Assembly (NCBI GenBank): GCA_965215105.1
Contig: OZ244051.1
Coordinates: 3,074,896 to 3,138,895, forward strand
Direction of reading: 5' to 3'
Source: Vicinamibacterales bacterium
GTDB lineage: Bacteria > Acidobacteriota > Vicinamibacteria > Vicinamibacterales > UBA8438
Length of the DNA: 64,000 bases
In this document: one piece after another, positions 1,614 through 24,728 of the stretch
How the letters are laid out: every line of letters starts with the position of its first letter
Numbering within the stretch: the stretch's first letter is position 1
Made by a program: the position numbers and the translations under genes
The notes under the pieces: model-generated
What the model was told of the DNA's origin: nothing
Databases searched by the model: none
What the model saw: only the letters and a program-made list of their open reading frames with translations

Positions 1614-1660
1614 TCTGTTTCAAGAAACGACGTGTCACTCGAGTCCGAACCGACCGGGAG

Positions 1661-2066: not shown

Positions 2067-2294
2067 AACGTCAGCGCCGCCTCTGCGCCACCCCAACGTG
2101 GCAATTCCTGCACCCGTCGGCGCTCGCCACCGGCGTTCCCCGTGCAACTCGGGCCGTTCCGCGTTTGGCCCCGTTCTTGCTCCGTGAAGCACCTCGTCCA
2201 CGGCCTGCCGGCCCCGGGTCGTTCTCGCGCCGCCGAGCACGCCGCACGCCCCGCACGCCGCAGGTGCGGAGTCGGGACGGCACCAGGAGCAGGA

Positions 2295-6976: not shown

Positions 6977-7398
6977 CTGAACGCGGGTCCATGTGCGCAG
7001 GCTGGGGCAGATCCACCTCGCGCCGGGAGTTCGGGTGTCGTTGATTGAGCAGGGATCGCCGGATCCCCCTTGGTCCCTGCCCGGCACGCGTGGATTTGTC
7101 TTGTCCGACCGCGCGGGTGCTCGACAGTACCCTTGCGCCCCTTGCGCCCTCCAAGGTCCCCGGCACGTTGACGTCAACGCACCTCTGCGCCGCCCCGGCG
7201 TGGCAATTCCTGCACCCGCCGGCCCCCGCCACCGGCTCGTCCCATGCAACTCGGGCCGTTCCGCGTTTGGCCCCGTTCTTGCTCCCTGAAGCACCTCGTC
7301 CACGGCCTGCCGGCCCCGGGTCGCCCCCGCGACCCTCCGAGCGCGCCGCACGCCCCGCACGTCTCGGGTGTGGACTCCGGACGTCGCCGGGAGCACGA

Positions 7399-8495
7399 AT
7401 GCAGGACGCCGCCTACAAGCTCTTGTTCTCGCGCCCGCGCATGGTCCACGACCTGCTCGACGGCTTCGCCGCCCGAAGCTGGAGCGGCGTCCTCGACTTC
7501 GAGTCGCTGGCCCCCCTGCCCGCCAGCTTCGTCGGCCGGGAGCTCCAGCAGCGCCACGGCGACCTCATCTGGCGCGTCCGCTTCCGCGACGACCGCTGGC
7601 TCTACCTGGTCCTGCTCCTCGAGTTCCAGTCCAGGAGTCTGTGCCGTGAAACGGCGCGGATTCCTGGAGGGTTGGTTGGGCGCCCAGCGGAGCCGCAGGC
7701 GACGATGGGCGGGCTACCGTCGACCCAGCGATGGCGGTGCGCATCCTGGAGTACACCGCGCTGCTCTACCGGCGGCTGGTCGACCACGACGTGCTCCGAG
7801 AACACGGGGCCCTGCCGCCGGTGCTGCCCGTCGTCCTCTACAACGGCCGGCGGCGGTGGACGGCGCCGGTCGAGGTGACGAACCTGCTGGCGGCGGGGAG
7901 CGAAGTGCTGGCGCCGTACCAGCCGTCGCAGCGATACTATGTTCTGGACGTGGCGCGCGTGGCGGACGCGGACCTGCCGGCGGGCAATCTGGTGTCTGCG
8001 CTCATCGGTCTGGAGAAGACGCGCGACGCGGCGGGCCTGCGCGAGGCGCTGAAGGTGCTGTCCGACCTTCTGCGGAAACAGAAGGACGACGCGTTGACGC
8101 GGGCATTCGTGACGTGGCTGCACCACGGGCTGCGGCATGCGGGCCGGCTGCCGGCGGACGGGGAGGACCCGTTGGCGCAGTTGCAGGAGACGCAGACGAT
8201 GCTGGAAGAGACCGTGCGGGAATGGACGCGTGAATGGCTCGAGCAGGGCCGCGCCCAGGGCATCGAGCAGGGCCGCATCCAGGGCATCGAGCAGGGCCGC
8301 CACGAAGAACGGGCGCTGCTCTGCCGTCTGGCGGCCCGGAAATTCGACGCCGGGGCCGTCGAGGGGCTGGCCGCCGCCCTGGCCGGCGTCACCGACCCGG
8401 ACCGCCTTGCGCGCGTCGGCGACTGGATCATCGAGTGCGCGACGGCGTCGGAGCTGCTGGCCCGCGTCCGCGGCGACAACGGGCCGGGCGGCTGA
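7399..8495 (+). pseudogene. Rpn/YhgA-like nuclease, copy 2, interrupted by an 83-bp insertion
   Basis: MQDAAYKLLFSRPRMVHDLL...LLLEFQS is followed by a frame break. The remainder (MAVRILEYTALLYRR... to GDNGPGG) is in the ORF 7731-8495. Confidence 0.8.
7633..7715 (+). other. 83-bp insertion of unknown origin inside rpn copy 2
   Basis: Absent from copy 1, which reads gagttccagtcc|accgtcgaacc. It contains the hairpin gccgtGAAacggc and the 10-bp palindrome tgggcgccca. Its length is not a multiple of 3. Confidence 0.8.
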
Positions 8496-8977
8496 GGCGC
8501 CGGCGGCGGGGACCCGGCGGCGGCGCGGCATCGGCGTCGAACGCGACCGGATCGCGCGTTTGAGCGCCCCGACATCTTCTCACCTCTCGACGCGCACCCC
8601 TGCCCGACCGTTCCCCCTTGCGGCTTCTCGGACGACAACACCGCGGAGCGAGCGTCGTGGCGCAGCTTCAACCCAACCGGGCCGCTTGACGTCGATCTCC
8701 AGACGGAGCAGCACACCTCGTCGGGCGTGCGGCCCGCTGCTGAACCACGTGCAAGCGTTGGCGTCTCCCGAGAACGCTGTACCCCCGTTCGTGACGACCT
8801 CGACAGCCGGGAACCCGCGCCCGGCGGTCGACGCATTCGTCGTCGCCAACGTCGCTACGGGAGTCTGACCCCGAACTTCGTCTATCATGACGCCCGCGAG
8901 GTCAAGCCGGCGCTCGCCGGGGGCCTTGCGAGGAAGGCGTCTGGCAGTCAGCGCCAACACCGCGGGATGAGGTGCCG

Positions 8978-9082
8978 CCGGGAACGTCATGACCGTTGAT
9001 TCCAAGTCCCGAAGGACCGCCGCCGCACCGGACTTCCACATCGCGCGGTGCTACCGGGAACGTCATGACCGTTGATTCCAAG
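8978..9082 (+). repeat. 29-bp direct repeat (8978-9006 and 9054-9082) duplicating the SNF2 gene start region
   Basis: ccgggaacgtcatgaccgttgattccaag occurs twice, 76 bp apart. Each copy carries an ATG. Confidence 0.9.
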
Positions 9083-12000
9083 GGGCGCGAGCTCTTCATC
9101 GTCGACAACAGCGTCTCCGGCTGGACCGGACTCCGGTACCTGGAGGAGTGGTGCGGCATCGCGAAGGCGTTCGACATCGCGACCGGGTACTTCGAGATCG
9201 GCGCCCTGCTCACCCTCGACGGCAGATGGCAGGGACTCGACAAGATCCGCATCCTGATGGGGGCGGAGACGACCCATCGGACCCGGAAGGCCATTCTCGC
9301 CGCCGTCCGGGCGCAAGCGCTCGACAGGCTCGACGAGAGCATCGAGGAGGACAAGCAGCCGAACCCCTTCCTGCACGGGGTCCCTGCGATCCTCGACGCC
9401 CTCCGCTCCGGGCAGATCGAGTGCCGGGTCTACGACAAGGACAAGTTCCACGCCAAGGCCTACATCACCCACGCCAAGCTCGAGGTAGTGGGCGCCCAGG
9501 CGCTGGTGGGATCCAGCAACTTCACGCCGCCGGGTCTGACGAAGAACGTCGAACTGAACGTCCAGATCCAGAGCGCGCGCGAGGTCGCGCAGCTCCAGGA
9601 GTGGTTCGAGACGCACTGGCACGAAGCGAGCGACGTCACCGAGGCCGTCATCGAGGCGGTCTCGCGCCATACGCACCTGTACTCGCCGTTCGACGTCTGC
9701 GCGAAGGCCCTGCAGCAGTTCTTCCGGGGGCACGAGCTGACCGCGACCGAGTGGGACGAGAGACGGTCGCGCATGTTCCCGCACCTCGACCGCTATCAGA
9801 GGGAGGCGTACTGGGCGCTCATGAAGATCGCCCGGCAGCATCTCGGCGCGTTCCTCTGCGACGGCGTGGGCCTCGGCAAGACGTTCGTCGGTCTGATGCT
9901 GATCGAGCGGCTCGTCCTCCACGAAGGCAAGCGTGTCGCGCTGTTCGCACCGAAGGCAGCCAAGGAGGGAGTATGGGAGCCCCACCTGCGTCAGTGGCTC
10001 CCGCACATCGGCGGCGTCGGCGGTGGCGCGGACTTCAGCAATCTGGCCGTGTTCAGCCACACCGACCTCGGACGAAGGGGGGACTTCCCGGCGCGTTTCC
10101 GACGCATTGCGGAACTCGCCGACGTCGTCGTCATCGACGAGGCGCACCACTTCCGCAACCCCGGCCGCCGGGAGGACCCCGAAAAGGGAATCGAACCGTC
10201 GCGCTACTACCGCCTGTTCGATCTGCTCGACAACGCGGAACGCCCCAAGACCGTGTTCATGCTGACGGCCACGCCCATCAACAACCGCCTGAGCGACTTC
10301 CGCCACATGACCGAGCTCTTCACCCGTCGCGACGAGGCCTACTTCGCGCGCACGATCGGCGTGAACAACCTGCGGGCCCACTTCAACCAGATGGAGAAGA
10401 CACTTCGCAGCCGTGTCGGGCAGGACGCGGCGGACGCCGCGGAGCACATGACCGACGCTCAGGAGATCCTCCTGACCGACGAGATCTTCCGCCAGCTCGT
10501 CGTCCAGCGGAGCCGCGCGTACGCCCGCGAAAGCCAGATTCGCGAGCACGGCAAAGCGACGGCCTTCCCCGAGCGGAAGGACCCCCAGGTGGCGGCGTAC
10601 TCGATCCGCAAGACCTACGGACGGATACTCGACCTGTTCGAGAGGGCCTTCGCGAAGCAGAACCCGCTCTTCGCACTCCCGATGTACTACCCCCTGCATT
10701 GGTACCGGGGCCCGGACAAGAACATCGACGCGTTCGAGGAGAACCGCCAGAAACAGGTGGTCGGCCTCATCCGGACCAACTTTCTCAAGCGCTTCGAGAG
10801 CTCCGTCGCCGCCTTCGAGCTCTCCTGCGACCGCCTGCTCCGGAAGCTGCTCGCCTTCGTCGAGGTCCACAGCGAGAGCGCCGCCGAGAAGAAGCGCCTC
10901 GAGAGGTGGAAAGCACAGAATGCCGAGGTCCTGGGCTACGCCGTCCAGCGCCAGCTCGATCTCTGGGGCGAGGACGACACAGAGGGGGACGACGAAGACA
11001 TCGTTCCCCAGGAGATGCTCGAAGCCGTCGTGCGCCTCGACCGGGCCGAGTACGACGTCGAGGAGATGATGTCCGAGACCTTCCTCGACCTCGACCAGAT
11101 CGCGCAGTTCCTCGACGAGGCGCGGAAGTTCGAGCCGAAGCACGACGACAAGCTCCGGAAGCTCATCCGCCTTCTCAAGTCGAAGACGCTGGCCGACCGG
11201 AAGATCCTGATCTTCACCGAGTTCGCCGACACCGCCCGCTACCTCAAGCGTCACCTGGACTCGGCCGGTATCGAGGGCGTCGAGCAGGTGGACAGCGCCA
11301 CGAAGAAGAACCGTGCAGACGTCATCCAGCGCTTCGCGCCCTACTACAACGGCCTCTCCTCCCCGGAGCTCGCCGAGCACGGCCGCGAGGAGATCCGCGT
11401 CCTGATCTCCACGGACGTCCTCTCCGAGGGTCTCAACCTCCAGGACGCCTCGCGGATGATCAACTACGACATCCACTGGAACCCCGTGCGCCTCATGCAG
11501 CGCATCGGCCGGGTGGACCGGCGCATGAACCCCGAGATCGAGAAGCGGCTCGTCGCCGACCGTCCCGACGCGGCCGCCTCGCGCGGCAAGGTCTGGTTCT
11601 GGAACTTCCTTCCGCCCGAAGAGCTGAACGACATCCTCTCGCTCTACACGCGGGTCACGCAGAAGACGCTGCTGATCTCCGAAACGCTCGGCATCGAGGG
11701 CAAGAAGCTCCTCACTCCCGAGGACGACTTCAAGGCGCTGAAGGAGTTCAATCACGCCTACGAGGGCACGCGCACGGCCGTGGAGGACATGCACCTCGAG
11801 TACCAGGCGCTGCTCCAGGCCGACCCGGAGCTGGAGGCGCGCCTTGCCCGCTTCCCCGGCGCGATCTTCAGCGGCCGCGAGCGCGTGGTGAAGGGCGTGC
11901 GCGGTGTCTTCCTCTGCTACGCGCTCCCCGCCCTCGACAAGGAGAAGAACGAGTTCACCGAGGAGGCCGGCACCACCCGCTGGTACCTCTACGACCTCGA

Positions 12001-12214
12001 CCGCGCTACCATCCTCGACGAACCGGGCGAGATCGTCGCGAGCATCCGCTCGAAGCCCGAGACGCCCCGACGCTGCGCCATGGAAGAGCAGACGCTCCTC
12101 GACGTCCGCAAGCGGATCGAAAAGCACGTCAAGAACAGCTACCTGAAGCGCGTGGATGCCCCGGTCGGCGTCAAGCCGCGACTGCGCTGCTGGATGGAGC
12201 TGAACGAGAGCTGA
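9065..12214 (+). CDS. PLD(HKD) nuclease - SNF2 family helicase fusion
   Basis: FHAKAYITH...GSSNFT is an HKD motif. The SNF2 motifs DGVGLGKT, VVIDEAHHFRN, LTATPINN and NYDIHWNPVRLMQRIGRVDR are present. ATG at 9065 is preferred to the upstream TTG at 8996. Confidence 0.85.
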   Translation: MTVDSKGRELFIVDNSVSGWTGLRYLEEWCGIAKAFDIATGYFEIGALLTLDGRWQGLDKIRILMGAETTHRTRKAILAAVRAQALDRLDESIEEDKQPNPFLHGVPAILDALRSGQIECRVYDKDKFHAKAYITHAKLEVVGAQALVGSSNFTPPGLTKNVELNVQIQSAREVAQLQEWFETHWHEASDVTEAVIEAVSRHTHLYSPFDVCAKALQQFFRGHELTATEWDERRSRMFPHLDRYQREAYWALMKIARQHLGAFLCDGVGLGKTFVGLMLIERLVLHEGKRVALFAPKAAKEGVWEPHLRQWLPHIGGVGGGADFSNLAVFSHTDLGRRGDFPARFRRIAELADVVVIDEAHHFRNPGRREDPEKGIEPSRYYRLFDLLDNAERPKTVFMLTATPINNRLSDFRHMTELFTRRDEAYFARTIGVNNLRAHFNQMEKTLRSRVGQDAADAAEHMTDAQEILLTDEIFRQLVVQRSRAYARESQIREHGKATAFPERKDPQVAAYSIRKTYGRILDLFERAFAKQNPLFALPMYYPLHWYRGPDKNIDAFEENRQKQVVGLIRTNFLKRFESSVAAFELSCDRLLRKLLAFVEVHSESAAEKKRLERWKAQNAEVLGYAVQRQLDLWGEDDTEGDDEDIVPQEMLEAVVRLDRAEYDVEEMMSETFLDLDQIAQFLDEARKFEPKHDDKLRKLIRLLKSKTLADRKILIFTEFADTARYLKRHLDSAGIEGVEQVDSATKKNRADVIQRFAPYYNGLSSPELAEHGREEIRVLISTDVLSEGLNLQDASRMINYDIHWNPVRLMQRIGRVDRRMNPEIEKRLVADRPDAAASRGKVWFWNFLPPEELNDILSLYTRVTQKTLLISETLGIEGKKLLTPEDDFKALKEFNHAYEGTRTAVEDMHLEYQALLQADPELEARLARFPGAIFSGRERVVKGVRGVFLCYALPALDKEKNEFTEEAGTTRWYLYDLDRATILDEPGEIVASIRSKPETPRRCAMEEQTLLDVRKRIEKHVKNSYLKRVDAPVGVKPRLRCWMELNES

Positions 12215-12218
12215 GCCG

Positions 12219-13271
12219 ATGCCGACCGACCACCGCGAACGCCTCGCCGGCATCCGCCGCTTCGATCAACTCGTCGCCTACCTGCGCGACGAGCTCGGCT
12301 GGCCGATCGACTCGGACGACTTCGAGGAAGCGACCTTCGAGTACACGCCGGACGAGCTCGGGATCGACGCGAAGAACGCGGCCAAGATCCAGGAGATCAA
12401 GCGCCTGCGACCCCTCGCACCGGGCCAGCCCTGGGGCATCTTCTTCGTGAAGTTCGAACCGAAGCGCCTGCCCGTGGTGGCGCTGCGCCGCATCCTCGGA
12501 CGGGTGGCGCTCAAGAAGCGCGGCTCCGCCAACCCGTCCGAGCGCCAGGCCTGGGCCGCCGACGACCTGCTGTTCGTGTCGAACTACGGTGAGGGCGACC
12601 AACGGCGGATCGCCTTCGCCCACTTCTCGAAGCCGCGCGACGGCCACGACCTGCCGGCCCTGAAGGTGCTCGGCTGGGACAACCTCGACACGCCGCTCCA
12701 CCTCGACGCCGTAGCCAGCGAGCTGCGGGACCACCTCACTTGGCCCGACGACGAGAGCGACCCCGACGCCTGGCGCGACCACTGGCGCGCCGCGTTCACG
12801 CTGCGCCACCGCGAGGTCATCACCACGTCGAAGCAGCTCTCCGCGCGCCTGGCCGTGCTGGCGCGCGCCATCCGCGACCGCACCCGGACCGCGCTGGCCA
12901 TCGAGACCGAGACCGGCCCCCTCACGAAGCTCATGAACGCGTTCCGGACCGCGCTCGTCCACGACCTCGACGAGGCCGGCTTCGCCGACATGTACGCCCA
13001 GACCATCGCCTACGGCCTGCTCTCGGCCCGCATCACCGACCCCGGCCGGCGCACCGCCGACGACTTCGCCGCCCACCTGCGGACGAACCCCTTTCTCCGG
13101 GAGCTGATGGAGACCTTCCTCCATGTGGGCGGCCGCCGCCGCCCGGCCGGCGGACCCGGCATCGACTTCGACGAGCTGGGCGCCTCGGACGTCGTGGAGC
13201 TCCTCGACCGGGCCAACATGGAGGCCGTCGTCCGCGACTTCGGCGACCGGAACCCCCAGGAAGACCCGGTG
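12219..13271 (+). pseudogene. N-terminal remnant of a type ISP/IIG (PglX/DrmMI-class) N6-adenine DNA methyltransferase; catalytic domain deleted
   Basis: FADMYAQTIAYGLLSARI ... [12 protein letters not shown] ... RNPQEDPV matches the pre-catalytic helical region of this class. The sequence breaks exactly where the IHFYE.../NPPY domain should start. The frame changes at 13272-13275. Confidence 0.65.
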
Positions 13272-13275
13272 CGTG

Positions 13276-14019
13276 TCCGAGGAGGTCTGGGGCTTCCACA
13301 TCGGCGGCTATCAAGTTTGCCACAAATGGCTCAAGGACCGGAAGGGTCGCACGCTCTCGGACGAGGACGTCGTCCAATACCAGAAGATCGTCGTCGCCCT
13401 GAACGAGACCATCCGGATCATGACCGAGATCGATGAAATCATCGAAGCCCACGGCGGCTGGCCCGACGCGTTCCGGGCGGGTGCGCAGGCGGGTGCGCCA
13501 TCGCACGGGACCGCGGAGGTGCTCCCGTTCCGGCCGCGGACGGTCCAGCCCGCGCCGGAGGACCGCTACGTCACCTGCGTGCCCCTCGTCCCACTCAAGG
13601 CCGCCGCCGGCGCCTTCAGCGACCCGCAACACATCGACGATGACGACGTCGAGTGGGTATCCTTGGAGTCCGGCCGTCGCCTGCGCAAGGGTATGTTCGT
13701 CGCCCAGGTCGTCGGCAGGTCCATGGCGCCCGCGGTCCCCGACGGCGCCTGGTGCCTCTTCCGGGCGCCCGTCGAGGGTACGCGCCAAGGCAAGACCGTC
13801 CTCGTCCAGCTCCGCGACGCCGCCGACCCCGAGACCGGACAGCGCTACACCGTCAAGCGCTACGAGAGCCAAAAGGCGAAGGGGGCAACTTCTTGGCATC
13901 ACCAGAAGATCGTCCTCGAGCCCGTCAACCCGGACTTCGAGTCGATCGTGCTCACCGGCGCGGACGAAGACGAGCTGCGGGTGGTCGCAGAACTGGTCGA
14001 GGTGCTTGGAGGCCGATGA
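13276..14019 (+). CDS. Type ISP/IIG C-terminal motif fused to a LexA-like S24 peptidase domain
   Basis: [50 protein letters not shown] is the conserved C-terminal end of the class. It is followed by [13 protein letters not shown] (LexA-like cleavage-site region), [11 protein letters not shown] (Ser at 13720-13722) and YTVKRY (Lys). Internal ATGs near 13420 could give a standalone S24 protein. Confidence 0.6.
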
Positions 14020-17000
14020 GTGGCTCCGGAGCAGCTCGAACCGCGTCTGGAGCTGCTCCGCGAGGAGTACGTCCTCGTTCAGGCGTGGAAGAAGACCGCA
14101 TCCTACATCCGCTACCACAACTGGTTTTCCGACACGCTGGCCCTCGACCGAGCGGCCGTGAACCTGCCAACGTTTCTCGGCGAACTGCGCGAGCGTCTGC
14201 AGGCTCCGGAGACTTGGCGGAACGATCCGTTGCGCATCGTTCCGGCGCCGAAGAGGCAGCACTGGAGAGTGCGGGAAGGTGCGTGGGAGCCCGTCAAGGG
14301 AGCGCCCTCGGCGCGGCTTCGACCGCTCGCCCACGTCAGCTTGGAGGAGCAGGTGGTGGCGACGGCACTGATGCTCTGTCTCGCCGACCGGGTCGAGACT
14401 CGGCAGGGGGATCCGTGGCGGTCGGTACGTGATCCGGAATCGCGAAGGCAGGTGGTTTCCTACGGAAATCGGCTGTTCTGCGACGCCGTCGGTAGCGAAC
14501 TACGCCATCGGTGGGGATCGTCCAAGCTCTACCGAGCCTACTACCAGGACTACCGTACGTTCCTCTCCCGGCCGGAAATCGCGGCCGAGGCGGTACCGGC
14601 AGCGGAGGAAAAGCGTGTCTACGTCGTCCATGCGGATCTTCGGCAGTTCTACGACCGCGTCCGCCCGGATCTGCTTTCCGCAGCCATCGGCCGCGTTCGC
14701 CGCGACGGAGATAATGCCGGATTCTTCTCTCTGGCGGCGTCGGTGCTCGATTGGCGCTGGGATCCGCGTGATGGAAGAGACGTCCGGATCTACGCAGGGC
14801 AGGCGGAGCTGGAGGACTTCACGCGGGTGGCGTTGCCGCAGGGGCTCGTCAGCGCGGGCTTCTTCGCCAACGTCGCGCTCCTTTCGTTCGACGAAGCGCT
14901 GCGCGCGGCGATCGGGACCGAGATCGCTTTCGGGATCCGCTTGGTGGATTCGTGCCGGTACGTCGACGACTTGCGGATCCTCGTTGCCGTTGACCGGAAC
15001 TCCGCCACCTCGTCGGACGACCTTGAGACCGCCGTCTCCAGCGTCTCCAGATGGCTGAGCAGGGTGCTGCAAGAGCATGCGCCCGGTCTCGCGCTGTCCC
15101 CCGAGAAGACCCAGGCCGCAGCGCTTGGAGGCGACGAACGGCCGCTGGTGCGACAGAGCGCGAAGATGAACCGCATCCAGTCGGCGGTGTCGGGGGGATT
15201 CGACGCGCTCGGGGGCGAGGAGATCCTCGACGCCATCCAGGGGCTGATGCGCGCTCAGGAAGCACTCAGCGTCGGCGACGACAGCGGCTGGCGATTTTCG
15301 CCGGTTCCAGACGTCCGCAACGAGACGGTCGCCAGATTCGGCGCTGCCCGATATCGAACCACGTTCCGTTCCATCAGGCCGCTGCTCCAGGACGATGACA
15401 CGCCGGACGAGTCTGAGGTTGGAAGAGCCGATACCGCGGCTGGCGGGCGACTGCGGGTAGCGCGCACGCGGCGGGAGCTGGACGAGGATGCGAGGGCGTT
15501 TGCGCTGGGTCTGATTCAGCGGTGGATCGACGATCCGTCGAACGTCCGCCTGCTTCGGATCGGCCTGGATCTCTGGCCGGACGTGAAGCTGTTGCAGGAA
15601 GTCCTCTCATTGCTTCGTCCGTTCACGGAAACGGGGGGCCGTCGCAACGCCCCGAGGCGCGTCGCTTGGTACTGCCTCGCTGAAGTCCTGCGCGCAGGAG
15701 CCACGGAGACGGGCCTCGTGGCGGACACCGAATCGCTCCCAGCGGGGGTCGACGTGGGTCGCTACCGGGAGGAGCTCCGTAAGGAGGCCAGTCGCCTGGC
15801 GACGTTGCCCTGGCCGACCATTCCCTGGTACCTCCGACAGCAGGCACTGCTGTTCCTTGCCGCGTTCGATCCCGCCGGGGCGCCGGTCGTGCGCACGGGA
15901 AGAGCGCCGGAGACCAAGCACTACCGGGAGCTCATCCTATTCCTGCGCGGTGGACTGCACCCGCGACCGGCCTCGGAATTCGCCACTTTCGCGATCCTGG
16001 CTAGGCGCGCGTTCGTGGGTCGAGCACGCGCCGTCGAGCTGACGCGCCCGGCTCTCAATCCCTCGGAGAAGCGGCAGATCGCCCGGAGGGACCCGAGTTT
16101 CCTTCTCGAACTCATCCACGCGGAGACGCAGGGTCTACTCTTCGACGATCTTCCGGCGCGCGTGCGCGAGGATCTGTGCAGGATTACTGATAGTTCGGGC
16201 GGAGACTCTGGCACCTTGGCCGACGCGGTCCTGCGCTCTCATCCGACCGGCTCACTCCGCAACGAGCTCTCCCTTCTCCGCTTCGGGAGGGCTTTTCTCG
16301 AACAGTGGCGGCAGCAGGAGTCTCCGTCCGAGGTGATCACGCCAGGGCAGGTCAAGCTCAACGTCGCCGAGGACCACGGGGTCCCAGACGTAGAAGGCCT
16401 ACGGATAACGGGGAGTCTGGCCGACCCATCGGGGTCCCTGTACGAAGTGCCCGCATGGTGTGAAGCCGGCGAGCGGTGGCGCTTCCAGCTCGGATTCTTG
16501 CTGCGGTTCATCCTGTCGGGGCAGCCGGATTTCACGCGTCCGGTACGCCGGGCGAGTTGGAGAGAGACCGAATTGGCCTATCGTCCTGCCGAGAACCACT
16601 GGTACCAGCGGCTGTACGGCCTGTACAACGGGCAGCCGGCCTTCGGAGACGACTGGCTTCCGATCACGGACTGGACGGAAGGATTCCTCCTCGCCCTCCT
16701 GCGCTGGCCGCGGTGCCGTGCTTCCGAGGGGTTCCGTTGGGTCGAACAGGGCATCGAAGAGGCGAGGACGCAGATTGGCCGGAGGATCGCCGCCCTCGAG
16801 AAACGTCGCGGCAGCGCTACCTGCGCGTTGATCCTGCCGCTGCCGGCCAAGCGACCGACCGCCACGAACGCGAATCGACCGTTACGCGCCTGCGTGGTCC
16901 AGGCGGCCGTTCCGGCGGCCGACGACTTTCGGCACACCGACCTGGCGCTCAACGAGTCCGCAATTCGGCGAAGACACCGCAATCACCTGTCGGCGGCCCT

Positions 17001-17757
17001 CGCAGCCGTGGAACGCATGCTGGCCCTGCGGGAGACGCACAAGGAAAGCGAAGGGCGGCTCGATTGGCTGATTCTACCCGAGCTTGCCGTCCATCCGAAT
17101 GACGTTCGTACTCATCTGGTTCCTTTCGCACGGGCTCACAGGGCGCTGATCCTCACCGGGCTGACCTATGAGGAGGTTCTGGTGGGGCAACCGCTGGTCA
17201 ACTCAGCTCTGTGGATCATTCCGGAGTGGTCGGACGCCTACGGGCTGCAGATCAGGACTCGCCGTCAGGGGAAGGCGCATCTCGCCCCGAATGAGCAGGC
17301 GTTCAACGGAGCTGGCGCCCGTATCCTGCAGGGCTTTCGGCCCTGCCAGTGGTTGATCGGCTATCCGTGGTCTGACGCGGAGGATGCCCAGCCTGCCTGG
17401 CTGACGGCGGCCGTCTGCTATGACGCGACGGATCTTGGTCTTGCTGCGGATCTCAGGGATGAGTCGGATATACTGGCGATCCCGGCGCTCAACCAAGACG
17501 TCAAGACGTTCGACCAGATGGCCCTGGCGTTGCACTACCACATGTTCCAGCTCGTGGTCGTCGCCAACAACGGGCAGTACGGCGGGAGCAACGCCTATTG
17601 GCCGAGGAAAGATGTTGTTGTCAGGCAGGTCTTCCATACCCATGGACAGCCGCAGGCCTCGATCTCGTTCCTCGAAATCGATGACATCGGCGCATTTCTG
17701 GAGCGCCACGACGGAGCCGACTGGAAGCATCCGCCTGCAGGTCTGAACCGTCGCTGA
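14020..17757 (+). CDS. Reverse transcriptase - nitrilase (C-N hydrolase) fusion, DRT1/UG1-like
   Basis: RT motifs: RLRPLAHVSLEEQVVATALMLCL, VVHADLRQFYDRV, LPQGLVSAGFFANVAL, YVDD (14959-14970) and LSPEKT. Nitrilase triad context: LILPELAV, QGKAHLAP and AAVCYDATD (Cys at 17416-17418). The GTG start directly abuts the upstream TGA (14017-14019). Confidence 0.85.
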   Translation: MAPEQLEPRLELLREEYVLVQAWKKTASYIRYHNWFSDTLALDRAAVNLPTFLGELRERLQAPETWRNDPLRIVPAPKRQHWRVREGAWEPVKGAPSARLRPLAHVSLEEQVVATALMLCLADRVETRQGDPWRSVRDPESRRQVVSYGNRLFCDAVGSELRHRWGSSKLYRAYYQDYRTFLSRPEIAAEAVPAAEEKRVYVVHADLRQFYDRVRPDLLSAAIGRVRRDGDNAGFFSLAASVLDWRWDPRDGRDVRIYAGQAELEDFTRVALPQGLVSAGFFANVALLSFDEALRAAIGTEIAFGIRLVDSCRYVDDLRILVAVDRNSATSSDDLETAVSSVSRWLSRVLQEHAPGLALSPEKTQAAALGGDERPLVRQSAKMNRIQSAVSGGFDALGGEEILDAIQGLMRAQEALSVGDDSGWRFSPVPDVRNETVARFGAARYRTTFRSIRPLLQDDDTPDESEVGRADTAAGGRLRVARTRRELDEDARAFALGLIQRWIDDPSNVRLLRIGLDLWPDVKLLQEVLSLLRPFTETGGRRNAPRRVAWYCLAEVLRAGATETGLVADTESLPAGVDVGRYREELRKEASRLATLPWPTIPWYLRQQALLFLAAFDPAGAPVVRTGRAPETKHYRELILFLRGGLHPRPASEFATFAILARRAFVGRARAVELTRPALNPSEKRQIARRDPSFLLELIHAETQGLLFDDLPARVREDLCRITDSSGGDSGTLADAVLRSHPTGSLRNELSLLRFGRAFLEQWRQQESPSEVITPGQVKLNVAEDHGVPDVEGLRITGSLADPSGSLYEVPAWCEAGERWRFQLGFLLRFILSGQPDFTRPVRRASWRETELAYRPAENHWYQRLYGLYNGQPAFGDDWLPITDWTEGFLLALLRWPRCRASEGFRWVEQGIEEARTQIGRRIAALEKRRGSATCALILPLPAKRPTATNANRPLRACVVQAAVPAADDFRHTDLALNESAIRRRHRNHLSAALAAVERMLALRETHKESEGRLDWLILPELAVHPNDVRTHLVPFARAHRALILTGLTYEEVLVGQPLVNSALWIIPEWSDAYGLQIRTRRQGKAHLAPNEQAFNGAGARILQGFRPCQWLIGYPWSDAEDAQPAWLTAAVCYDATDLGLAADLRDESDILAIPALNQDVKTFDQMALALHYHMFQLVVVANNGQYGGSNAYWPRKDVVVRQVFHTHGQPQASISFLEIDDIGAFLERHDGADWKHPPAGLNRR

Positions 17758-17840
17758 TTGCCCTTGAGGGTCAAGAATGCCACTGTTTTCCACAGCAGGG
17801 GCGTCGCGGGTCTGAACATGAGATCATCGGGAGGTTCGTC

Positions 17841-20800
17841 GTGACAACCTTCGCCGCTGGCGCGCGCCGCTTGCCGCTCCACCACGTCACCATCCGCGTC
17901 CCCTGGCACGACGGGGGCTGGACCGGGAAGGTGTGCGCCCGACCGCTGGACAACTCGAGCTGCCTGATCCTGCCCCGCATCGGCGAGGGCCGGCGCGACG
18001 ACGTGGAGACGCGTTGCGCGGGCCGGCGGCTCGACGAGCTCGACCGCGCCGACCTGCCACCCTGCGTGAGCGAGCGCGTCTCGTTCATGGCGCCCTTCGC
18101 GTTCCCGCGGACGATGACGCACCCTTACACGGAGTTCTACCCCGAGACCTACGGGCACTTCGCACCCACCCCCTTCGTGCAGCCGGCGTACTCCGCTGCC
18201 TGCGTGCCCTTCCGATGGGTGCTGCGCGAGAAGGTCGAGGGGAGCCCCAAGGACGACGAGATCGGGATCGCCGATCGTCTGAAGATCGGCTGGTTGCCCG
18301 AGCGCGAGCCCGAGATCCACAATCACCGGGGCCATCAGGTCGATACCGCCTGGGTCCAGGAGCGCGGGAACCAGCTCGCGCTGCTCGACACCTTCTTCGG
18401 CGCGCTCCGACCCCAGGAGTCGCTCTGCTTCTTCTATGCCAAGCGCACCCCGCTCTCCGAACAGTCCCGACGCGTGATCGTCGGCGTGGGCCGCGTGCTT
18501 TCCGTGGGCGACGCCACGGAGTACGCATACAAGGTCGAGAACCCGCCGCTCCAATGCGTGCTCTGGGAGCGCAACGTTGGCCACTCCGTCCGACCCGGCT
18601 TCGCGGACGGCTTCCTCTTCCCCTACCGGGAGGCGTTGGAGCTCGCCGACCGCGAGAGGGTCGACCCCGAAGAGTTCGTGGCCTTCGCTCCCGACGAGCA
18701 CTTCGACGCCTACTCCTACGGCTCGGAGCTCCTGACCCACGATGGCGCCGTGGCGTCCCTCGTGGCCTGCGCGGCGGCGCTGCACCGGATCCGCGACCGG
18801 ATAGAGGGACCGTGGGACGAGGCGCTCGCCTGGATCGACACGCAGCTCAACCGCCTGTGGAAGGCGCGCGGCGCGTTCCCCGGCCTCGGCTCGGCGCTCT
18901 CCGCGTTCGGCTACGAGTGGGGCTTCCAGCACGGGAGCCTGCTCGCCTACGAGATCGAACTGCTGCGAGAACGAGACGGCGGCGACCCGTGGGTGCTCGT
19001 GGAAGCCGTGATGGATGCACCCGGGAAGCTCGGCGGCCCCGTGGCGAAGCTCCTCACCGACGGTCTGTGCAGGGGCTGGAAGCGCCTCGCCGACGAGCGG
19101 CGGGCCCTGCTCCAGCTCCTCGGCCGTTGCGCCGTCTCGGAGGATCAGGCGCTGCGCTTCTACGACACTACGGCACGGGCGGAGGCCGGCATCGAGGCCT
19201 GCGACGCCGAGTTGCTGCGCAATCCGTACCTCATATTCGAACGCGACCGGCGCGCCGCCGACCCCATCGCCTTCGGCGCGGTGGACCGGGGCCTGTTCCC
19301 GGATGAGGCGGTGCGGGAGCAGTTCCCCGTGCCGAAGCCGAGTTTCATCGAAGACCCGGCCGACGAACGGCGGGTGCGCGCACGCGTCGTGGACCTCCTG
19401 GAACACGCGGCGGGCGAAGGCCACACGCTGCTTCCCAGGAGCTGGGTCATCCGCAGGGCGCGGGAGCACGCGCTCCAGCCGCCGTGCCCGCTCGGCGAGA
19501 ACGTGCTCGACGCCTGCGAGGAGAGCTTCGATCCGGTGATCGCGCGCGTCGCGACGCGCGCGGGCGAGCCCGCCTACCAGGTGGCGCGGCTCGTAGAGTG
19601 CCGCAAGATCATCCGCCGCGAGGTGCTCGGTCGGAAGAGGGGAAAGCCGCACGCGGCCGATCACGAGTGGCGTGGGCTGGTAGACGCGGGGCTCGATGAG
19701 CCGCTGCCCGCGTATCCCGAAGAGCGCGAGCTGGAGAAGCGTGCGCGGCGCGAGAAAGCTACCGCGCTCGAGCAGCTCTTCCGCTCGCGGCTCTCCGTGC
19801 TGATCGGGCCGGCGGGGACGGGCAAGACGACGCTGCTACGGATGCTCTGCTCGCTTCCCGGCCTCGCCGAGAGAGGGCTGATACTCCTCGCCCCCACGGG
19901 CAAGGCCCGCGTGCGACTGGAAGAACAGACCCGCATGCGAGGCGCCGGCCAGACGCTGGCGCAGTTTCTGATCCGGCGGCAGCGCTACGACGGGAAGACC
20001 GGCGCCTACTTTCCCAAGCCCAGGGCGCCTCGCTGCGGTGACTACCGGACCGTGATCGTGGACGAGTGCTCGATGCTCACCGAAGAGCAGCTCGCCGCGC
20101 TGATCGACTCGCTCAGCAACGTCGAGCGGCTCGTGCTCGTCGGCGATCCGCGCCAGCTTCCGCCGATCGGGGCCGGCCGTCCGTTCGTGGACATCGTTCG
20201 AGGGCTCGAGCCGGAGAACGTCGAGTTGGTCTTTCCGCGCTGCGGGCCGGGCTATGCCGAGCTCACGATCTCGCGACGCCACCAGGGCGAGGCCCGGGCC
20301 GACGTGCTCCTGGCATCGCACTTCAGTGGACGGCCGCTCGATCCTGCCGCAGACGCCGTGCTGGACGAGGGCGAGGAAAGAACGGACGGACGACTGCGGC
20401 TCGTGCGCTGGAACCACCCGGAGGAGCTTCAGGAGAAGCTCGTTGCCGAGCTGGTCCAGACCCTCGGGCTCGCCGGACCGGACGACGAACTGGGCTTCGA
20501 GGAATCGCTGGGCGGCGCGCGCCGCGGGGACAACCCGTGGGCCTTCTTCTTCAACCGGTTCGGCGACAACTCGGGAGCCGCCGCGCAGGCGGAAACCTGG
20601 CAGATGCTCTCGCCCCGGCGCGCCGGGCTCGTTGGGGTGGATGCACTGAACCGCACCCTCCAGACCCGGTTCCGGGTGAAGGTTCGCGAGCTCGCCGAGA
20701 CGGAGGGGTGGGGCCGCAAGGTGCCGCGGCCCTTCGGCCCGCAGACGCTCCTCTACGGCGACAAGGTCATCAACGTCATCAACCAGCGCCGGCGCGACGT

Positions 20801-21662
20801 CTGGCCGAAGCCGGCGGACGAGGCCTACCTCGCCAACGGAGACATCGGCATCGTCGTCGGGCAATACAAGTACCAGAAGAGCAAGTTCAGGGGCCTGCCG
20901 CGGAAGCTCGAGGTCGAGTTCGCGGGGCAACTGGGCCCCAAGTACGGGTTCCACCCCGGCGAGTTCGGAGACGAAGGGCGCAACCCGCTCGAGCGGGCCT
21001 ACTGCCTGACGGTGCACAAGACCCAGGGCAGCGAGTTCGGCGTCACCTTCGTCGTGCTCACCAACCCGTGCTGGCTGCTCTCACGCGAGCTCCTGTACAC
21101 GGCGCTGACCCGCCACAAGGACCGGCTGGTCATCCTGCACGAGGGCCCGCTCGTCGAGTATCGCCGCTATGCGGGCAACCAGCACTCGGAGATCGCCCGC
21201 CGCATGACGAACCTCTTTGCGGATCCGTTGCCGCGCGAAGTAGCCGTCGACGCCCGGCAACGCTTCCTCGAGGCAGGGCTCATTCATCGAACCGAGCGCG
21301 GTGACCTCGTGCGCTCGAAGTCGGAGCTGGTCATTGCCGACAAGCTTCACGCCCGCGGGATCGAGTACGCCTACGAGCAGCCTCTCGTCCTGCCCAACGG
21401 TCGCACGCGTTACCCGGACTTCACGATCGCGGATCACGCGCGGGGCGTGACCTTCCACTGGGAGCATCTCGGCATGGTCGACGACCCGGGGTACAGAGCC
21501 CGATGGGAGAGGAAGCGTGCCGAGTACCTGGAGTGCGGAATCGAGCCTCACGAGAACGGCGGGGGCCCGGACGGCACGCTGATCGAGACCCGCGACGAGC
21601 CGGGCGGGGGGCTGGACGCAGCGGCGATCGCGTCGGTGATTGACGAAGTGATTCTGGGTTGA
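17841..21662 (+). CDS. SF1 (RecD/AAA_30-like) helicase with a large unassigned N-terminal region and a C-terminal PD-(D/E)xK (Vsr/DUF559-like) nuclease motif
   Basis: GPAGTGKTT, VIVDECSM, VLVGDPRQLPPIGAG, TVHKTQGSEF and LYTALTRHKDRLVIL are helicase motifs. The C-terminus reads RSKSELVIADKLHARGIEYAYEQPL...YPDFTI...FHWEHLG. GGGAGG lies 6 nt before the GTG at 17841. Confidence 0.8.
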   Translation: MTTFAAGARRLPLHHVTIRVPWHDGGWTGKVCARPLDNSSCLILPRIGEGRRDDVETRCAGRRLDELDRADLPPCVSERVSFMAPFAFPRTMTHPYTEFYPETYGHFAPTPFVQPAYSAACVPFRWVLREKVEGSPKDDEIGIADRLKIGWLPEREPEIHNHRGHQVDTAWVQERGNQLALLDTFFGALRPQESLCFFYAKRTPLSEQSRRVIVGVGRVLSVGDATEYAYKVENPPLQCVLWERNVGHSVRPGFADGFLFPYREALELADRERVDPEEFVAFAPDEHFDAYSYGSELLTHDGAVASLVACAAALHRIRDRIEGPWDEALAWIDTQLNRLWKARGAFPGLGSALSAFGYEWGFQHGSLLAYEIELLRERDGGDPWVLVEAVMDAPGKLGGPVAKLLTDGLCRGWKRLADERRALLQLLGRCAVSEDQALRFYDTTARAEAGIEACDAELLRNPYLIFERDRRAADPIAFGAVDRGLFPDEAVREQFPVPKPSFIEDPADERRVRARVVDLLEHAAGEGHTLLPRSWVIRRAREHALQPPCPLGENVLDACEESFDPVIARVATRAGEPAYQVARLVECRKIIRREVLGRKRGKPHAADHEWRGLVDAGLDEPLPAYPEERELEKRARREKATALEQLFRSRLSVLIGPAGTGKTTLLRMLCSLPGLAERGLILLAPTGKARVRLEEQTRMRGAGQTLAQFLIRRQRYDGKTGAYFPKPRAPRCGDYRTVIVDECSMLTEEQLAALIDSLSNVERLVLVGDPRQLPPIGAGRPFVDIVRGLEPENVELVFPRCGPGYAELTISRRHQGEARADVLLASHFSGRPLDPAADAVLDEGEERTDGRLRLVRWNHPEELQEKLVAELVQTLGLAGPDDELGFEESLGGARRGDNPWAFFFNRFGDNSGAAAQAETWQMLSPRRAGLVGVDALNRTLQTRFRVKVRELAETEGWGRKVPRPFGPQTLLYGDKVINVINQRRRDVWPKPADEAYLANGDIGIVVGQYKYQKSKFRGLPRKLEVEFAGQLGPKYGFHPGEFGDEGRNPLERAYCLTVHKTQGSEFGVTFVVLTNPCWLLSRELLYTALTRHKDRLVILHEGPLVEYRRYAGNQHSEIARRMTNLFADPLPREVAVDARQRFLEAGLIHRTERGDLVRSKSELVIADKLHARGIEYAYEQPLVLPNGRTRYPDFTIADHARGVTFHWEHLGMVDDPGYRARWERKRAEYLECGIEPHENGGGPDGTLIETRDEPGGGLDAAAIASVIDEVILG

Positions 21663-21791
21663 CGCTCCTGCGAACTTCGACGGCGACTCCCAAACGCGGC
21701 CAACTGTGAGGGGCAGTGGACCGATCGGGTGTCGAAGAGCCGAGTCGAGGCGCCGGAGCGATTGACGCGGCGCGAAGTACGGAGGGCACGC

Positions 21792-22052
21792 ATGCGAGAG
21801 CGAAGCATCGGGATTCAGGAACTCCACGCGAACCTGGGTAGGTGCCTGGATGAGGTCCGGCGCGGCACGACTCTTTTCCTGACGGATGGCAAGCATCGGG
21901 TGGCTCGCCTCATCCCGGAGCCCGACGCGGCCGTCTCGGGGGGCGGACTTCCCATCGCCTGGAGCGGGCGCCGGCTGAAGAAGACCAAGCCGAGGGCCCG
22001 CCTGCGCGGTGGGGGCAGCATGGCCGACATCGTCAGGGAGAACCGCCGGTGA
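21792..22052 (+). CDS. Phd/YefM-type antitoxin
   Basis: MRERSIGIQELHANLGRCLDEVRRGTTLFLTDGKHRVARLIP. GGAGGG RBS is present. A 4-nt GTGA overlap joins it to the PIN gene. Confidence 0.75.
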   Translation: MRERSIGIQELHANLGRCLDEVRRGTTLFLTDGKHRVARLIPEPDAAVSGGGLPIAWSGRRLKKTKPRARLRGGGSMADIVRENRR

Positions 22053-22489
22053 CGCTGCTCTACCTGGACACGAGCGCGCTGTTCAAGCGCTACGTCGAGG
22101 AGGCCGAGTCGGAGGCGCTGCTCGGCCGGATCGAAGACGCCCCGGCGGTGGGCACGGCCTTGATCACGCGGGTCGAGGTGGCGGCCGCGCTGGCGAAGGC
22201 GGTGCGTGATGATCGCATGCCGTCCTCGGAAGCGCGCGAGGCCGAGAGCGATTTCCTCGACGACTGGGCCGACTTCACGAGAATCGGATTGACGGACGAT
22301 GTGGCGGCGCGCGCTGGCCGCCTCGCGTGGAAGCACGACCTGCGAGGCTACGACGCCGCGCAGTTGGCGGCCGCGCTCGCATGGCGCGAGGCCACCGAAG
22401 ACGCGGAGGACCAGGTCGTGTTCGCCTGCTTCGACAACGATCTGCGCCGGGCGGCTGCGGCGGAGGGCCTCGAGACGTGGCCGGCATGA
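22049..22489 (+). CDS. vapC: PIN-domain ribonuclease toxin VapC
   Basis: LLYLDTSALFKRYVEE carries the N-terminal acidic residue. RGYDAAQLAAAL and VFACFDNDL are typical PIN motifs. Confidence 0.8.
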   Translation: MTLLYLDTSALFKRYVEEAESEALLGRIEDAPAVGTALITRVEVAAALAKAVRDDRMPSSEAREAESDFLDDWADFTRIGLTDDVAARAGRLAWKHDLRGYDAAQLAAALAWREATEDAEDQVVFACFDNDLRRAAAAEGLETWPA

Positions 22490-22639
22490 TCGCTGCCGAT
22501 GTGTGGTGCCGGGCGGTTACATGCTGTTGTTGCCGCCCCGCGCGGCGGGACGTATCCCGCTGTCTGGACCGCGCCGCTCGCTGCTCGATGCCTGCCGTCG
22601 TGGATGTGGCCGTCGTCCGCGGTATCCGCTTGGCCGACC

Positions 22640-23689
22640 TCAGAACGTGGCGATCGGGTTGATCGGCGACCCGGTGCCGCGCGTGGGCAGCGGGGCCGCA
22701 GTCAGCAGGAACTCGTACCGGTTCAGCGAGGCGGCCACCTCGCCCACGGCCTCGAGGTCCAGATTGTCGAACAGCGGCATCCCCAGGTAGATGAGCGCGA
22801 ACCGGTGGAGCGGGCGGGGACCGAGGTCGTCCGCCACCGTCACGGCCGGGTCGGCGTCGGCCGGCGCCATGTCCTGGGCGGCCTCGCCCCCCAGTATCGC
22901 GATGTCCCGCTCCCTGAGCCACGGAATGGCCGACGCGTGCAGGCCGGCTGCCGCGTTGGCCACGTCCCAGGGACCGACCTCGGCGCGCCGGGCCCAGCGG
23001 CCGGTGCGGATGACCACCACGTCGCCGGCGGAGACGGTCACCGCCGTCGCCGCCTCCCAGGCCTCGATGTCCTCGACGCGGATCGGCGTGCCGGGCTCCA
23101 GGTAGGGCACGTTCCGGAACCGCGCCATGTCGATCAGCACGCCTCGCGTGACGATGCCCGACTTGGCGTTGTGCACGGTGTTCCTGGCGTGGCCGCCCCG
23201 CGCCGCGACCTCGGCGGGATCCGGCCGGTAACCGTTGTAGGTCACGCCCTCGCCGATGAAGTTGTGGTTCAGGAAGTCGCGGTGCGTGTGGATGAACCCG
23301 TGGTACGAGACCCGGATCTCGTCGGCGGTGATCCCGAGCGGCGTGACCTGGTACGGCCGCGGGCCGTCGATGGCCGCCTCGGTCTCGGCGTCGCGCGCGA
23401 GCGAGACGGAGATGCCCTCCCGCACGAGGGCGGCGGCCTGCCTGCGCTTGGCCGGCGTGATGAGGTTCAGGGTGCCCCTCTCGTCCTCGGCGCCCCACCG
23501 GCCCCAGTTCGTCAGCTCCTGCTTCCACCGCTCGACGTCCGCCAGCGTGACCCGCTGTCCGCCGGCGGCCGGTGCCGAGCCCGGCTGGAAGCCCGGGGAG
23601 CGGGCGGTCTGCCCGAGCAACGGCACCGCCACGACACCCGCCAGCGCGACCAACACAGCCAGACTCGATCGTCTCTTGGTTGTTCCCAT
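22640..23689 (-). CDS. Cyclase-family protein (kynurenine formamidase-like), secreted
   Basis: MGTTKRRSSLAVLVALAGVVAVPLLG signal peptide preceded by GGGAGGGACC. GTLNLITP and HGFIHTHRDFLNH are cyclase-like motifs. Confidence 0.7.
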   Translation of the reverse strand: MGTTKRRSSLAVLVALAGVVAVPLLGQTARSPGFQPGSAPAAGGQRVTLADVERWKQELTNWGRWGAEDERGTLNLITPAKRRQAAALVREGISVSLARDAETEAAIDGPRPYQVTPLGITADEIRVSYHGFIHTHRDFLNHNFIGEGVTYNGYRPDPAEVAARGGHARNTVHNAKSGIVTRGVLIDMARFRNVPYLEPGTPIRVEDIEAWEAATAVTVSAGDVVVIRTGRWARRAEVGPWDVANAAAGLHASAIPWLRERDIAILGGEAAQDMAPADADPAVTVADDLGPRPLHRFALIYLGMPLFDNLDLEAVGEVAASLNRYEFLLTAAPLPTRGTGSPINPIATF

Positions 23690-23882
23690 TGGTCCCTCCC
23701 TGGTGCCGCCCCGTGGTCGATCGCGGCTCCGCGACCCGGAGCCCGAGACGTCCTCCACCGATCGGATCAGACCATTGAACGGTTCCCGGTCCCGCGCTCC
23801 TCACTCCGCGAGGCGCCGTCCCGATGATAGCCCGTCCGACAGTTTGCTCTGCGCGTCGGCGGCGTCGAGCGGCGCCGCGCGA

Positions 23883-24605
23883 GCCCTGCCGCCGGTGCTG
23901 CCCGTCGTCCTCTACAACGGCCGGCGGCGGTGGACGGCGCCGGTCGAGGTGACGAGCCTGCTGGCGGCGGGGAGCGAAGTGCTGGGGCCGTACCAGCCGT
24001 CGCAGCGATACTATGTCCTGGACGTGGCGCGCGCGGCGGACGCGGACCTGCCCGCCGGCAACTTGGTGTCTGCGCTCATCGGTCTGGAGAAGACGCGCGA
24101 CGCGGCGGGCCTGCGCGAGGCGCTGAAGGTGCTGTCCGACCTTCTGCGGAACAGAAGGACGACGCGTTGACGCAGGCGTTCGTGACGTGGCTGCACCGGG
24201 GGCTGCGGCATGCGGGCCGGCTGCCGGCGGACGGGGAGGACCCGTTGGCGCAGTTGCGGGGGGACGCAGACGATGCTGGAAGACGCCGTGCGGGAATGGA
24301 CGCGTGAATTGCTCGAGCAGGGGCGCGCCGAAGGCATCGAGAAGGGGCGCGCCGAAGGCATGGAAGAGGGCATCGAGAAGGGGCGCGTCCAGGGCATCGA
24401 GCAGGTCCGGCACGAAGAGCGGGCGCTGCTCTGCCGTCTGGCGGCCCGGAAATTCGATGCCGGGGCCGCCGAGGGGCTGGCCGCCGCCCTGGCCGGCGTC
24501 ACCGACCCGGACCGCCTTGCGCGCGTCGGCGACTGGATCATCGAGTGCGCGACGGCGGCCGACCTGCTGGCCCGCGTCCGCGGCGACAGCGGGCCGGGCG
24601 TCTGA
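23883..24605 (+). pseudogene. Rpn/YhgA-like nuclease, copy 3; 5'-truncated with two indels
   Basis: Homology to copy 2 begins abruptly at ALPPVLPVVLYNGRRRW. There is a 1-bp loss in ggaaacag at about 24151 and a 1-bp gain in ttgcgggggg at about 24258. The C-terminal part is in the ORF 24210-24605. Confidence 0.8.
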
Positions 24606-24728
24606 GGGACCAGCGCGCCAGGCGCCTCCCGCGCGTGGGCGCGGCCTGCTCGCCGCCGTCCTCACTGCGGACCGAGAGCACGAATCCCGGCTGGAAGGCG
24701 CCAACGGGAACGGGCGAGGATCGAGACC

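Follow-up and report, generated by a model that had tools for sequence, protein, structure and literature searches.

The open reading frame at positions 14020-17757 of a 64,000-nucleotide stretch of DNA from a Vicinamibacterales bacterium (assembly GCA_965215105.1, contig OZ244051.1; the whole stretch is called the window here, and coordinates refer to it unless a locus is named) is intact and, judged by its sequence, belongs to the known DRT1 (UG1, class 3 UG/Abi) family of anti-phage proteins. We estimate a probability of about 85% that it is a complete, probably functional DRT1 anti-phage protein with a mechanism like that of its characterised homologue, from which we infer its biochemistry and anti-phage activity. 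DRT1 was reportedly first described by Gao et al. in 2020. According to the list of open reading frames and their translations, the gene, drt1 (drt1a), lies on the + strand and has a GTG start, 1245 codons and a TGA stop. The frame has no internal stops, and the length is normal, as relatives have 1243-1260 amino acids (aa).

Family assignment and catalytic residues

The PADLOC profile Drt1a (PDLC03745) matches residues 4-1242 with positions 4-1176 of its 1176 (E=0, 1233.8 bits), and a second Drt1a profile, PDLC02171, reaches 429 bits (E 9.8e-129). A sequence search of the PDB gave a single match, chain A of 9YFD, the cryogenic electron microscopy structure named "Defense-associated reverse transcriptase 1". 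Residues 5-1244 of the window protein align with residues 10-1227 of this chain (E 1.2e-122), and the identity is ~36% in the reverse transcriptase (RT) region and ~39% in the nitrilase region. A first-pass annotation, made from the sequence alone, had described a DRT1/UG1-like RT with a C-terminal nitrilase, and the Drt1a score together with the end-to-end alignment to 9YFD supports this description.

Models of related enzymes scored much lower. The UG5-nitrilase model reached 95 bits on residues 999-1221, i.e., on the nitrilase region only, and RT_UG5_small reached 17.6 bits. All other UG/Abi models remained at or below 47 bits (UG21 47, UG6 37, Drt2 17, AbiA 14). The RT does not group with those of group II introns, retrons or diversity-generating retroelements (DGRs); the group II intron model TIGR04416 scored 26.8 bits against a cutoff of 300, and the retron St85 model scored 19.4 bits against a cutoff of 235. 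Pfam gives the whole protein one label only, RVT_1 on residues 196-367, above the gathering cutoff. With residues 1-1200 as the query, 793 clusters (50% identity) were matched at E<=1e-3, and a separate search with a limit of E<=1e-10 gave 1390 proteins, among which is the identical sequence in NCBI/ENA. Conservation was read from 91 full-length representatives (30-57% identity) and from 64 genome-encoded homologues (48-100% identity); counts out of 91 and out of 64 refer to these two sets.

In the RT domain, D206, D316 and D317 are conserved in 91/91 representatives and in 64/64 genome loci, and D316 and D317 align with D324 and D325 of 9YFD. The first-pass annotation had read FYD as motif A. 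FYD is present at residues 210-212, but the catalytic aspartate is D206 (in ADL, 91/91) and not D212, which occurs in 86/91 representatives and is a glycine in 9YFD. The other motifs it had read, motif B, YVDD and LSPEKT, are all found, the last at residues 359-364 with an invariant K363. An AlphaFold2 (AF2) model of residues 1-940 with the RT core, the loop and the helical region had a predicted local distance difference test score (pLDDT) of 88.8 and a predicted template modelling score (pTM) of 0.92. In Foldseek, the RT core of this model matched group II and G2L4 RTs, and its fold is also similar to that of DGR and retron RTs. Longer alignments were obtained with AbiA, UG15/DRT4 and AbiK, and DRT2 and DRT9 were matched as well. 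The PDB copy used for Foldseek had its cut-off in April 2026 and does not include 9YFD.

S391 is predicted to be the site of DNA attachment, as the equivalent residue of the characterised enzyme, S402, is the priming serine. When residues 302-569 of 9YFD were added to the family alignment with MAFFT --add, S402 fell on S391. The residue sits in the invariant motif IQxx[VI]SG[GP]xD (91/91 representatives, 64/64 genome loci), and we assigned it as the predicted attachment site because of this profile-guided alignment and this invariance. Its invariance across 91 clusters also speaks for serine priming as a general property of DRT1. The loop around it carries a probably disordered insertion of low confidence at residues ~456-483 (pLDDT 53-55 at 460-480), which lies inside the stretch equivalent to residues 382-478 of 9YFD. 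The latter are unresolved in that structure (PMC13275509).

Residues ~484-930 align continuously with the alpha-helical repeat domain of 9YFD, and AF2 predicts almost only helix over 484-770 and 816-928. Pfam found no domain in the middle region (residues 401-902) at E<=1. The ~450 aa which the first-pass annotation had left unassigned are the partly disordered priming loop and this alpha-helical repeat domain.

The C-terminal part has a nitrilase-superfamily fold. An AF2 model of residues 935-1245 (pLDDT 89.3, pTM 0.91) gave 98 Foldseek matches in the PDB at E<=1e-3, with E-values down to 1e-10 and TM-scores of ~0.5-0.6. The best 50 of the 98 are all nitrilase-superfamily proteins, and the matches include amidases, Nit3, formamidase, beta-alanine synthase, Lnt, nitrilase 4 and cyanide dihydratase. 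The PADLOC profile RTasNitrilase was matched with E 4.7e-59. Among PDB sequences, a profile of this domain had 9YFD as its only significant match; NAD+ synthetase 5kha followed with E=0.5, at the PEL motif. The Glu-Lys-Cys context noticed in the first-pass annotation is present as LPELAV (residues 1019-1024), GKAHLAP (1084-1090) and VCYDATD (1132-1138), and it extends to a conserved Glu-Lys-Glu-Cys tetrad: E1021 (91/91), K1085 (91/91), E1092 (90/91) and C1133 (90/91). Residues 929-1227 of 9YFD align with this domain and place C1116 on C1133, K1219 on K1236 and A1223 on A1240. The latter two belong to a C-terminal lid in which K1236 (86/91), P1239 (88/91) and A1240 (88/91) are conserved. In the genome loci, the key residues are found in 63-64/64.

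Table 1 Features of the DRT1 protein and its neighbouring genes in the window
Feature	Residues	Position	Strand	Basis
RT domain (N-terminal extension and fingers/palm)	~1-370	14020-15129	+	
Motif A	D206	14635-14637	+	Alignment, conservation
Motif B, PQG..AN	273-275 and 283-284	14836-14871	+	Sequence
YVDD	314-317	14959-14970	+	Sequence
Priming loop	~371-483	15130-15468	+	Alignment, AF2
Predicted covalent DNA attachment site (codon)	S391	15190-15192	+	Homology to S402
Alpha-helical repeat domain	~484-930	15469-16809	+	AF2, 9YFD alignment
Nitrilase-superfamily domain	~935-1245	16822-17754	+	AF2 and Foldseek, 9YFD alignment
Nitrilase catalytic tetrad	E1021	17080-17082	+	
Nitrilase catalytic tetrad	K1085	17272-17274	+	
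Nitrilase catalytic tetrad	E1092	17293-17295	+	
Nitrilase catalytic tetrad	C1133	17416-17418	+	
C-terminal lid, WKHPPAG	includes K1236, A1240	17722-17742	+	9YFD alignment
HKD(PLD)-nuclease and Snf2 helicase gene, first of the cassette		8996-12214	+	Pfam PLDc_2, ResIII, Helicase_C
Methyltransferase-S24 remnant, pseudogene		12219-14019	+	Fragments match residues 1-351 and C-terminus only
PDC-S68 candidate defence protein	1273 aa	17841-21662	+	PADLOC PDC-S68, E=0

Gene borders and the proposed mechanism

The first-pass annotation had stated that the gene abuts coding sequence and that no obvious template RNA region precedes it. Both statements are borne out. The upstream open reading frame ends with TGA at 14017-14019 and the GTG of drt1 follows at once, leaving a gap of 0 nt. 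A GGAGG resembling a Shine-Dalgarno sequence lies at 14008-14012 (+), 7 nt 5' of this GTG, and the start position is shared by homologues. Downstream, a spacer of 83 nt (17758-17840) with a GGGAGG Shine-Dalgarno sequence at 17830-17835 separates the stop of drt1 from the next gene. This spacer is not conserved, and in the junction survey most relatives had a stop/start overlap of 4-11 nt instead. Rfam gave no match at E<=1 between 8000 and 23000 of the window. There is no room for a non-coding RNA (ncRNA) at this locus, and the junctions of relatives are 3 nt long or overlapping. No RNA partner is conserved with drt1, because the flanks differ across homologues. The transmembrane partner drt1b, which is optional in the family, is absent here, with 0 nt upstream of drt1 and 83 nt before PDC-S68. 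Promoter and terminator scans of 7000-24000 gave counts at or below the shuffled expectation and were uninformative.

For the DRT1 family, the question of template and primer raised in the first-pass annotation has been answered by work on a characterised member (Neville et al., Nat Struct Mol Biol 2026). This enzyme synthesizes DNA without a template and primes from its own serine, and the product is a short, A-rich, semirandom DNA attached covalently to S402 (PMC13275509). These DNA adducts bring about assembly into tetramers and filaments, in which swapped C-termini occlude the nitrilase site (PMC13275509). Abortive infection requires both the RT and the nitrilase activity, and D324N/D325N, C1116A, K1219A and A1223F each abolished the defence of the model DRT1 (PMC13275509). 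In the case of phage T4, activation of this enzyme requires the helicase Dda (PMC13275509). The gene of the model DRT1 confers defence on its own, and the membrane partner drt1b accompanies only ~18% of drt1 genes (PMC13275509).

By homology to this enzyme, the window protein would be template-free and serine-primed too. Its RT domain would work without an RNA template, with the hydroxyl of Ser391, in the flexible loop after the palm, as the primer, and would add a short, semirandom, A-rich tail of single-stranded DNA (ssDNA) to the protein itself. The covalent DNA adducts would promote assembly via the nitrilase domains, leading to tetramers and then to filaments. In the filament, the C-terminal tail with K1236 and A1240 would close over the neighbouring nitrilase site (E1021/K1085/E1092/C1133), and the closed tail would hold the nitrilase effector primed yet dormant. 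Phage infection would then free the nitrilase, which would lead to abortive infection.

Neighbouring genes and alternative explanations

The genes around drt1 form a cassette, and the order HKD-Snf2, methyltransferase-S24, DRT1, PDC-S68 is common to many close homologues. The HKD-Snf2 gene matches the PADLOC profile "HKD+Snf2" (E 1.1e-58), and orthologues with 75-90% identity lie upstream of DRT1 in 11 loci. The gene between it and drt1 derives from a parent of ~1305 aa, a Type ISP/IIG-like N6-methyltransferase fused to a target recognition domain and Peptidase_S24; an intact homologue (locus L001, 4080-7997) has N6_Mtase, Eco57I, Type_ISP_C and Peptidase_S24 domains. In the window, this gene is a pseudogene because ~2120 bp, a length not divisible by three, have been deleted with a frameshift at the junction 13270/13271. 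The deletion takes away the methyltransferase together with most of the specificity domain. Even taken alone, the C-terminal fusion of an S24 autoprotease (LexA-like) to a methyltransferase of this kind is unusual.

The core of PDC-S68 is a superfamily 1B (SF1B) helicase of the RecD2/Dda/Pif1 type, as it matches the NCBIfam model RecD2 (E 3.2e-56) and, in the PDB, RecD2 3e1s (E 3.5e-22) and Dda 3upu (E 2.6e-7). Its C-terminal ~145 aa (21230-21662; RSKSE...YPDF...WEHxG) match the PADLOC profile PDC-S69 (E 9e-5) and look nuclease-like. A literature search for PDC-S68 returned no paper. Distant S68-like helicases (28-33% identity) also occur near DRT1 in L017 (2838-6473, - strand) and L074 (1578-5081). 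They lie upstream, one of them on the opposite strand, which could mean defence-island clustering or a looser association.

Further genes in the window touch on the extent of this island. Upstream of the cassette, YhgA-like (Transposase_31) open reading frames at 1605-3320 and 7650-8495 may lie at the border of a mobile island. Downstream of PDC-S68, a PIN-domain open reading frame (21854-22489) and a nucleotidyltransferase-HEPN fusion (24606-25616) extend the defence/toxin island. Such a setting is no more than supportive of an anti-phage role for DRT1.

Several points weigh against a complete DRT1 acting as its homologue does. The window protein is only ~36-39% identical to the characterised enzyme and matches a different Drt1a profile best, PDLC03745 rather than PDLC02171; the subfamily is divergent, and the activity is carried over by homology. 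The spacing between IQ and the priming serine is two residues shorter than in 9YFD, and pairwise phmmer alone put S402 on G393, two residues off. In the isolated residues 903-1245, Pfam CN_hydrolase (PF00795) had no match at E<=1; despite this silence, similarity to the nitrilase superfamily is found in the fold and in the catalytic residues. The residues R1210 and Y1215, whose contacts stabilise the C-terminal pseudoknot in 9YFD, correspond to E1228 and G1232 here. Their equivalents are thus lost, and the filament and domain-swap details may therefore differ from 9YFD. Two more points come from the neighbourhood: tight stop/start coupling could mean that DRT1 does not act alone in the window lineage, and with the methyltransferase gene decayed, the island may be eroding.

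The first of these two leads to an explanation in which DRT1 is a translationally coupled module of a co-transcribed HKD-Snf2/methyltransferase-S24/PDC-S68 system and is inactive or different alone. In such a system, a host helicase of the Dda/RecD2 type or the S24 sensor would read or remodel the covalent ssDNA adducts of DRT1; PDC-S68, for example, might act on them as phage Dda may do. We regard the coupled module as unlikely, and the proposed reading of adducts as just as doubtful; the data do not call for a functional link between DRT1 and the Dda-like helicase. The junctions are tight on both sides, with 0-3 nt or a 4-nt overlap between the S24-gene stop and the DRT1 start and mostly a 4-11 nt overlap between the DRT1 stop and the S68 start. 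The DRT1-S68 pair is kept where S68 is only ~48% identical to the window copy (L018, L021, L029, L030, L057) and where the upstream restriction-modification-like genes are missing (L003, L021, L056), and S68 has the same type of SF1B helicase core as T4 Dda, on which activation of DRT1 depends (PMC13275509). The co-occurrence counts, however, weigh against a coupled module. PDC-S68 is immediately downstream of DRT1 in 13/32 assessable close relatives, and in the 31 where both flanks could be judged, both neighbours occur in 7, the S24 gene alone in 4, S68 alone in 6 and neither in 14. In the clade with <64% identity, almost none has either neighbour. Only 3/80 S68-centred metagenome loci contain DRT1, and in several of the 80 HKD-Snf2 and methyltransferase-S24 abut S68 directly, sometimes with an ATGA overlap, with no DRT1. 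Remnant fragments of S68 lie beside an intact DRT1 in L001, L010, L016 and L027, the model DRT1 is a single-gene defence (PMC13275509), and the G+C content at third codon positions is lower in drt1 (0.78) than in HKD-Snf2, the methyltransferase fragment and S68 (0.89-0.95), in a window with ~70% G+C. This difference suggests that drt1 has an origin separate from the surrounding cassette. The co-occurrence counts led us to reject an obligate DRT1-S68 system. Fusion of the S24 gene to DRT1 by stop-codon readthrough was rejected as well: the upstream TGA is in frame with the GTG of drt1 here and in relatives with a 3-nt gap, but other relatives have an out-of-frame 4-nt overlap.

Erosion of the island would fit a decaying, non-functional DRT1 relic, as the adjacent methyltransferase-S24 gene carries the 2.1-kb frameshifting deletion and DRT1 is interrupted or frameshifted in other genomes (L016, L026, L063, L065, L023, L055). 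The window copy is uninterrupted, has the normal length and keeps all invariant catalytic residues, which makes this explanation very unlikely. Still less probable, in our estimate, is a template-dependent RT as in the class 2 enzymes DRT2 and DRT9, retrons and DGRs, with the RNA template inside the flanking or overlapping coding sequence. The RT core does have a fold like that of group II intron, G2L4, DGR and retron RTs, and an RNA embedded in coding sequence can escape sequence inspection. On the other side are the missing Rfam match, the missing intergenic space, flanks that are not conserved across homologues, and scores of the retron, group II and DRT2 models far under the Drt1a score. 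A self-contained, template-free DRT1 is the explanation we retain.

The DRT1 frame is split by insertions of 1.1-3.5 kb, presumably mobile elements, in L016 (8001-12900), L026 (8010-13077), L063 (3516-10743) and L065 (8010-12989). In L023, L055 and L059 it is frameshifted, and inactivated copies are thus common. A three-gene cassette of HKD-Snf2, methyltransferase-S24 and PDC-S68, with overlapping stop and start codons and without DRT1, recurs in metagenomes (L079, L115, L123, L130), and this cassette may represent a split defence system of Type ISP-like character that is still undescribed. The two S68 subclades, with ~80% and ~48% identity to the copy in the window, each occur both with DRT1 and without it, which implies repeated gain or loss. 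The base unit appears to be the three-gene cassette, and DRT1 appears to be an optional, self-contained insert in a horizontally mobile defence cassette.

Distribution and comparison with known systems

DRT1 homologues with 65-84% identity were found in metagenome-assembled genomes (MAGs) of Binatia, Acidobacteriota, Gemmatimonadota, Nitrospirota and Spirochaetia, and further in those of Alpha-, Gamma- and Deltaproteobacteria, Brocadiaceae, Planctomycetota and Opitutales. The cassette neighbours reach up to ~90% identity across different phyla (loci L001-L029 compared with the window). Such identity of DRT1 over many phyla implies horizontal and recent spread of this clade. Several contig names (the SB066x bins) look like those of sponge-microbiome MAGs.

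Apart from its context, the window gene is an ordinary representative of a family already known. What it adds lies mainly in an annotation at residue level, a distribution across phyla and an operon context that recurs. A protein labelled only RVT_1 by Pfam becomes a defined single-gene anti-phage system with catalytic residues assignable by homology, and the mechanism of the characterised DRT1 is extended, again by homology, to a divergent, high-GC and environmentally widespread subfamily. That DRT1 recurs nested between methyltransferase-S24 and a Dda-like helicase gives a lead, open to testing, as to how DRT1 is triggered. If the four genes did form one integrated system, a restriction-type first line would be wired to an RT-nitrilase second line of abortive infection.

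The closest known system is the DRT1 of 9YFD. Both proteins have the RT, the priming loop, the alpha-helical repeats and the nitrilase in the same order over the full length, and the RT aspartates, the priming serine, the nitrilase tetrad and the lid Lys and Ala are conserved in the window protein. As in most DRT1 loci, there is no ncRNA and no drt1b partner. The window protein differs by its extra ~23-residue charged and disordered insertion (456-483), and its gene lies in a high-GC genome, nested between methyltransferase-S24 and PDC-S68.

UG5-large/DRT11 of Sinorhizobium meliloti is also a class 3 UG/Abi RT-nitrilase, acts as an Abi-like minimal system of a single protein and requires both domains (PMC13436386). 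It shares with the window protein the class 3 UG/Abi RT fused to a C-terminal nitrilase. Its RT, however, belongs to a different cluster, and the UG5 model matches the nitrilase part of the window protein only. The class 1 UG/Abi enzymes AbiK, AbiA and Abi-P2 (PDB 7R06, 8OZ7, 7R08) carry out protein-primed, template-independent DNA synthesis, as the window protein would by homology, and they share the RT and helical fold (Foldseek E 1e-7 to 1e-4 over 530-770 columns). Unlike the window protein, they have no nitrilase effector and another oligomer architecture, and sequence similarity is negligible (AbiA hidden Markov model, 14 bits). For the RT/maturase of group II introns, the likeness in fold is limited to the RT core.

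In retrons (Eco2, Ec78, Ec83), non-genomic DNA made by the RT holds a toxic effector dormant until phage infection, and by homology the same principle would apply to the window protein. Retrons use a dedicated ncRNA as template and primer and usually have separate effectors, whereas the RT, the effector and the predicted attachment site of the window protein are in one polypeptide. For DRT1, Neville et al. use the term "a minimal retron" (PMC13275509).

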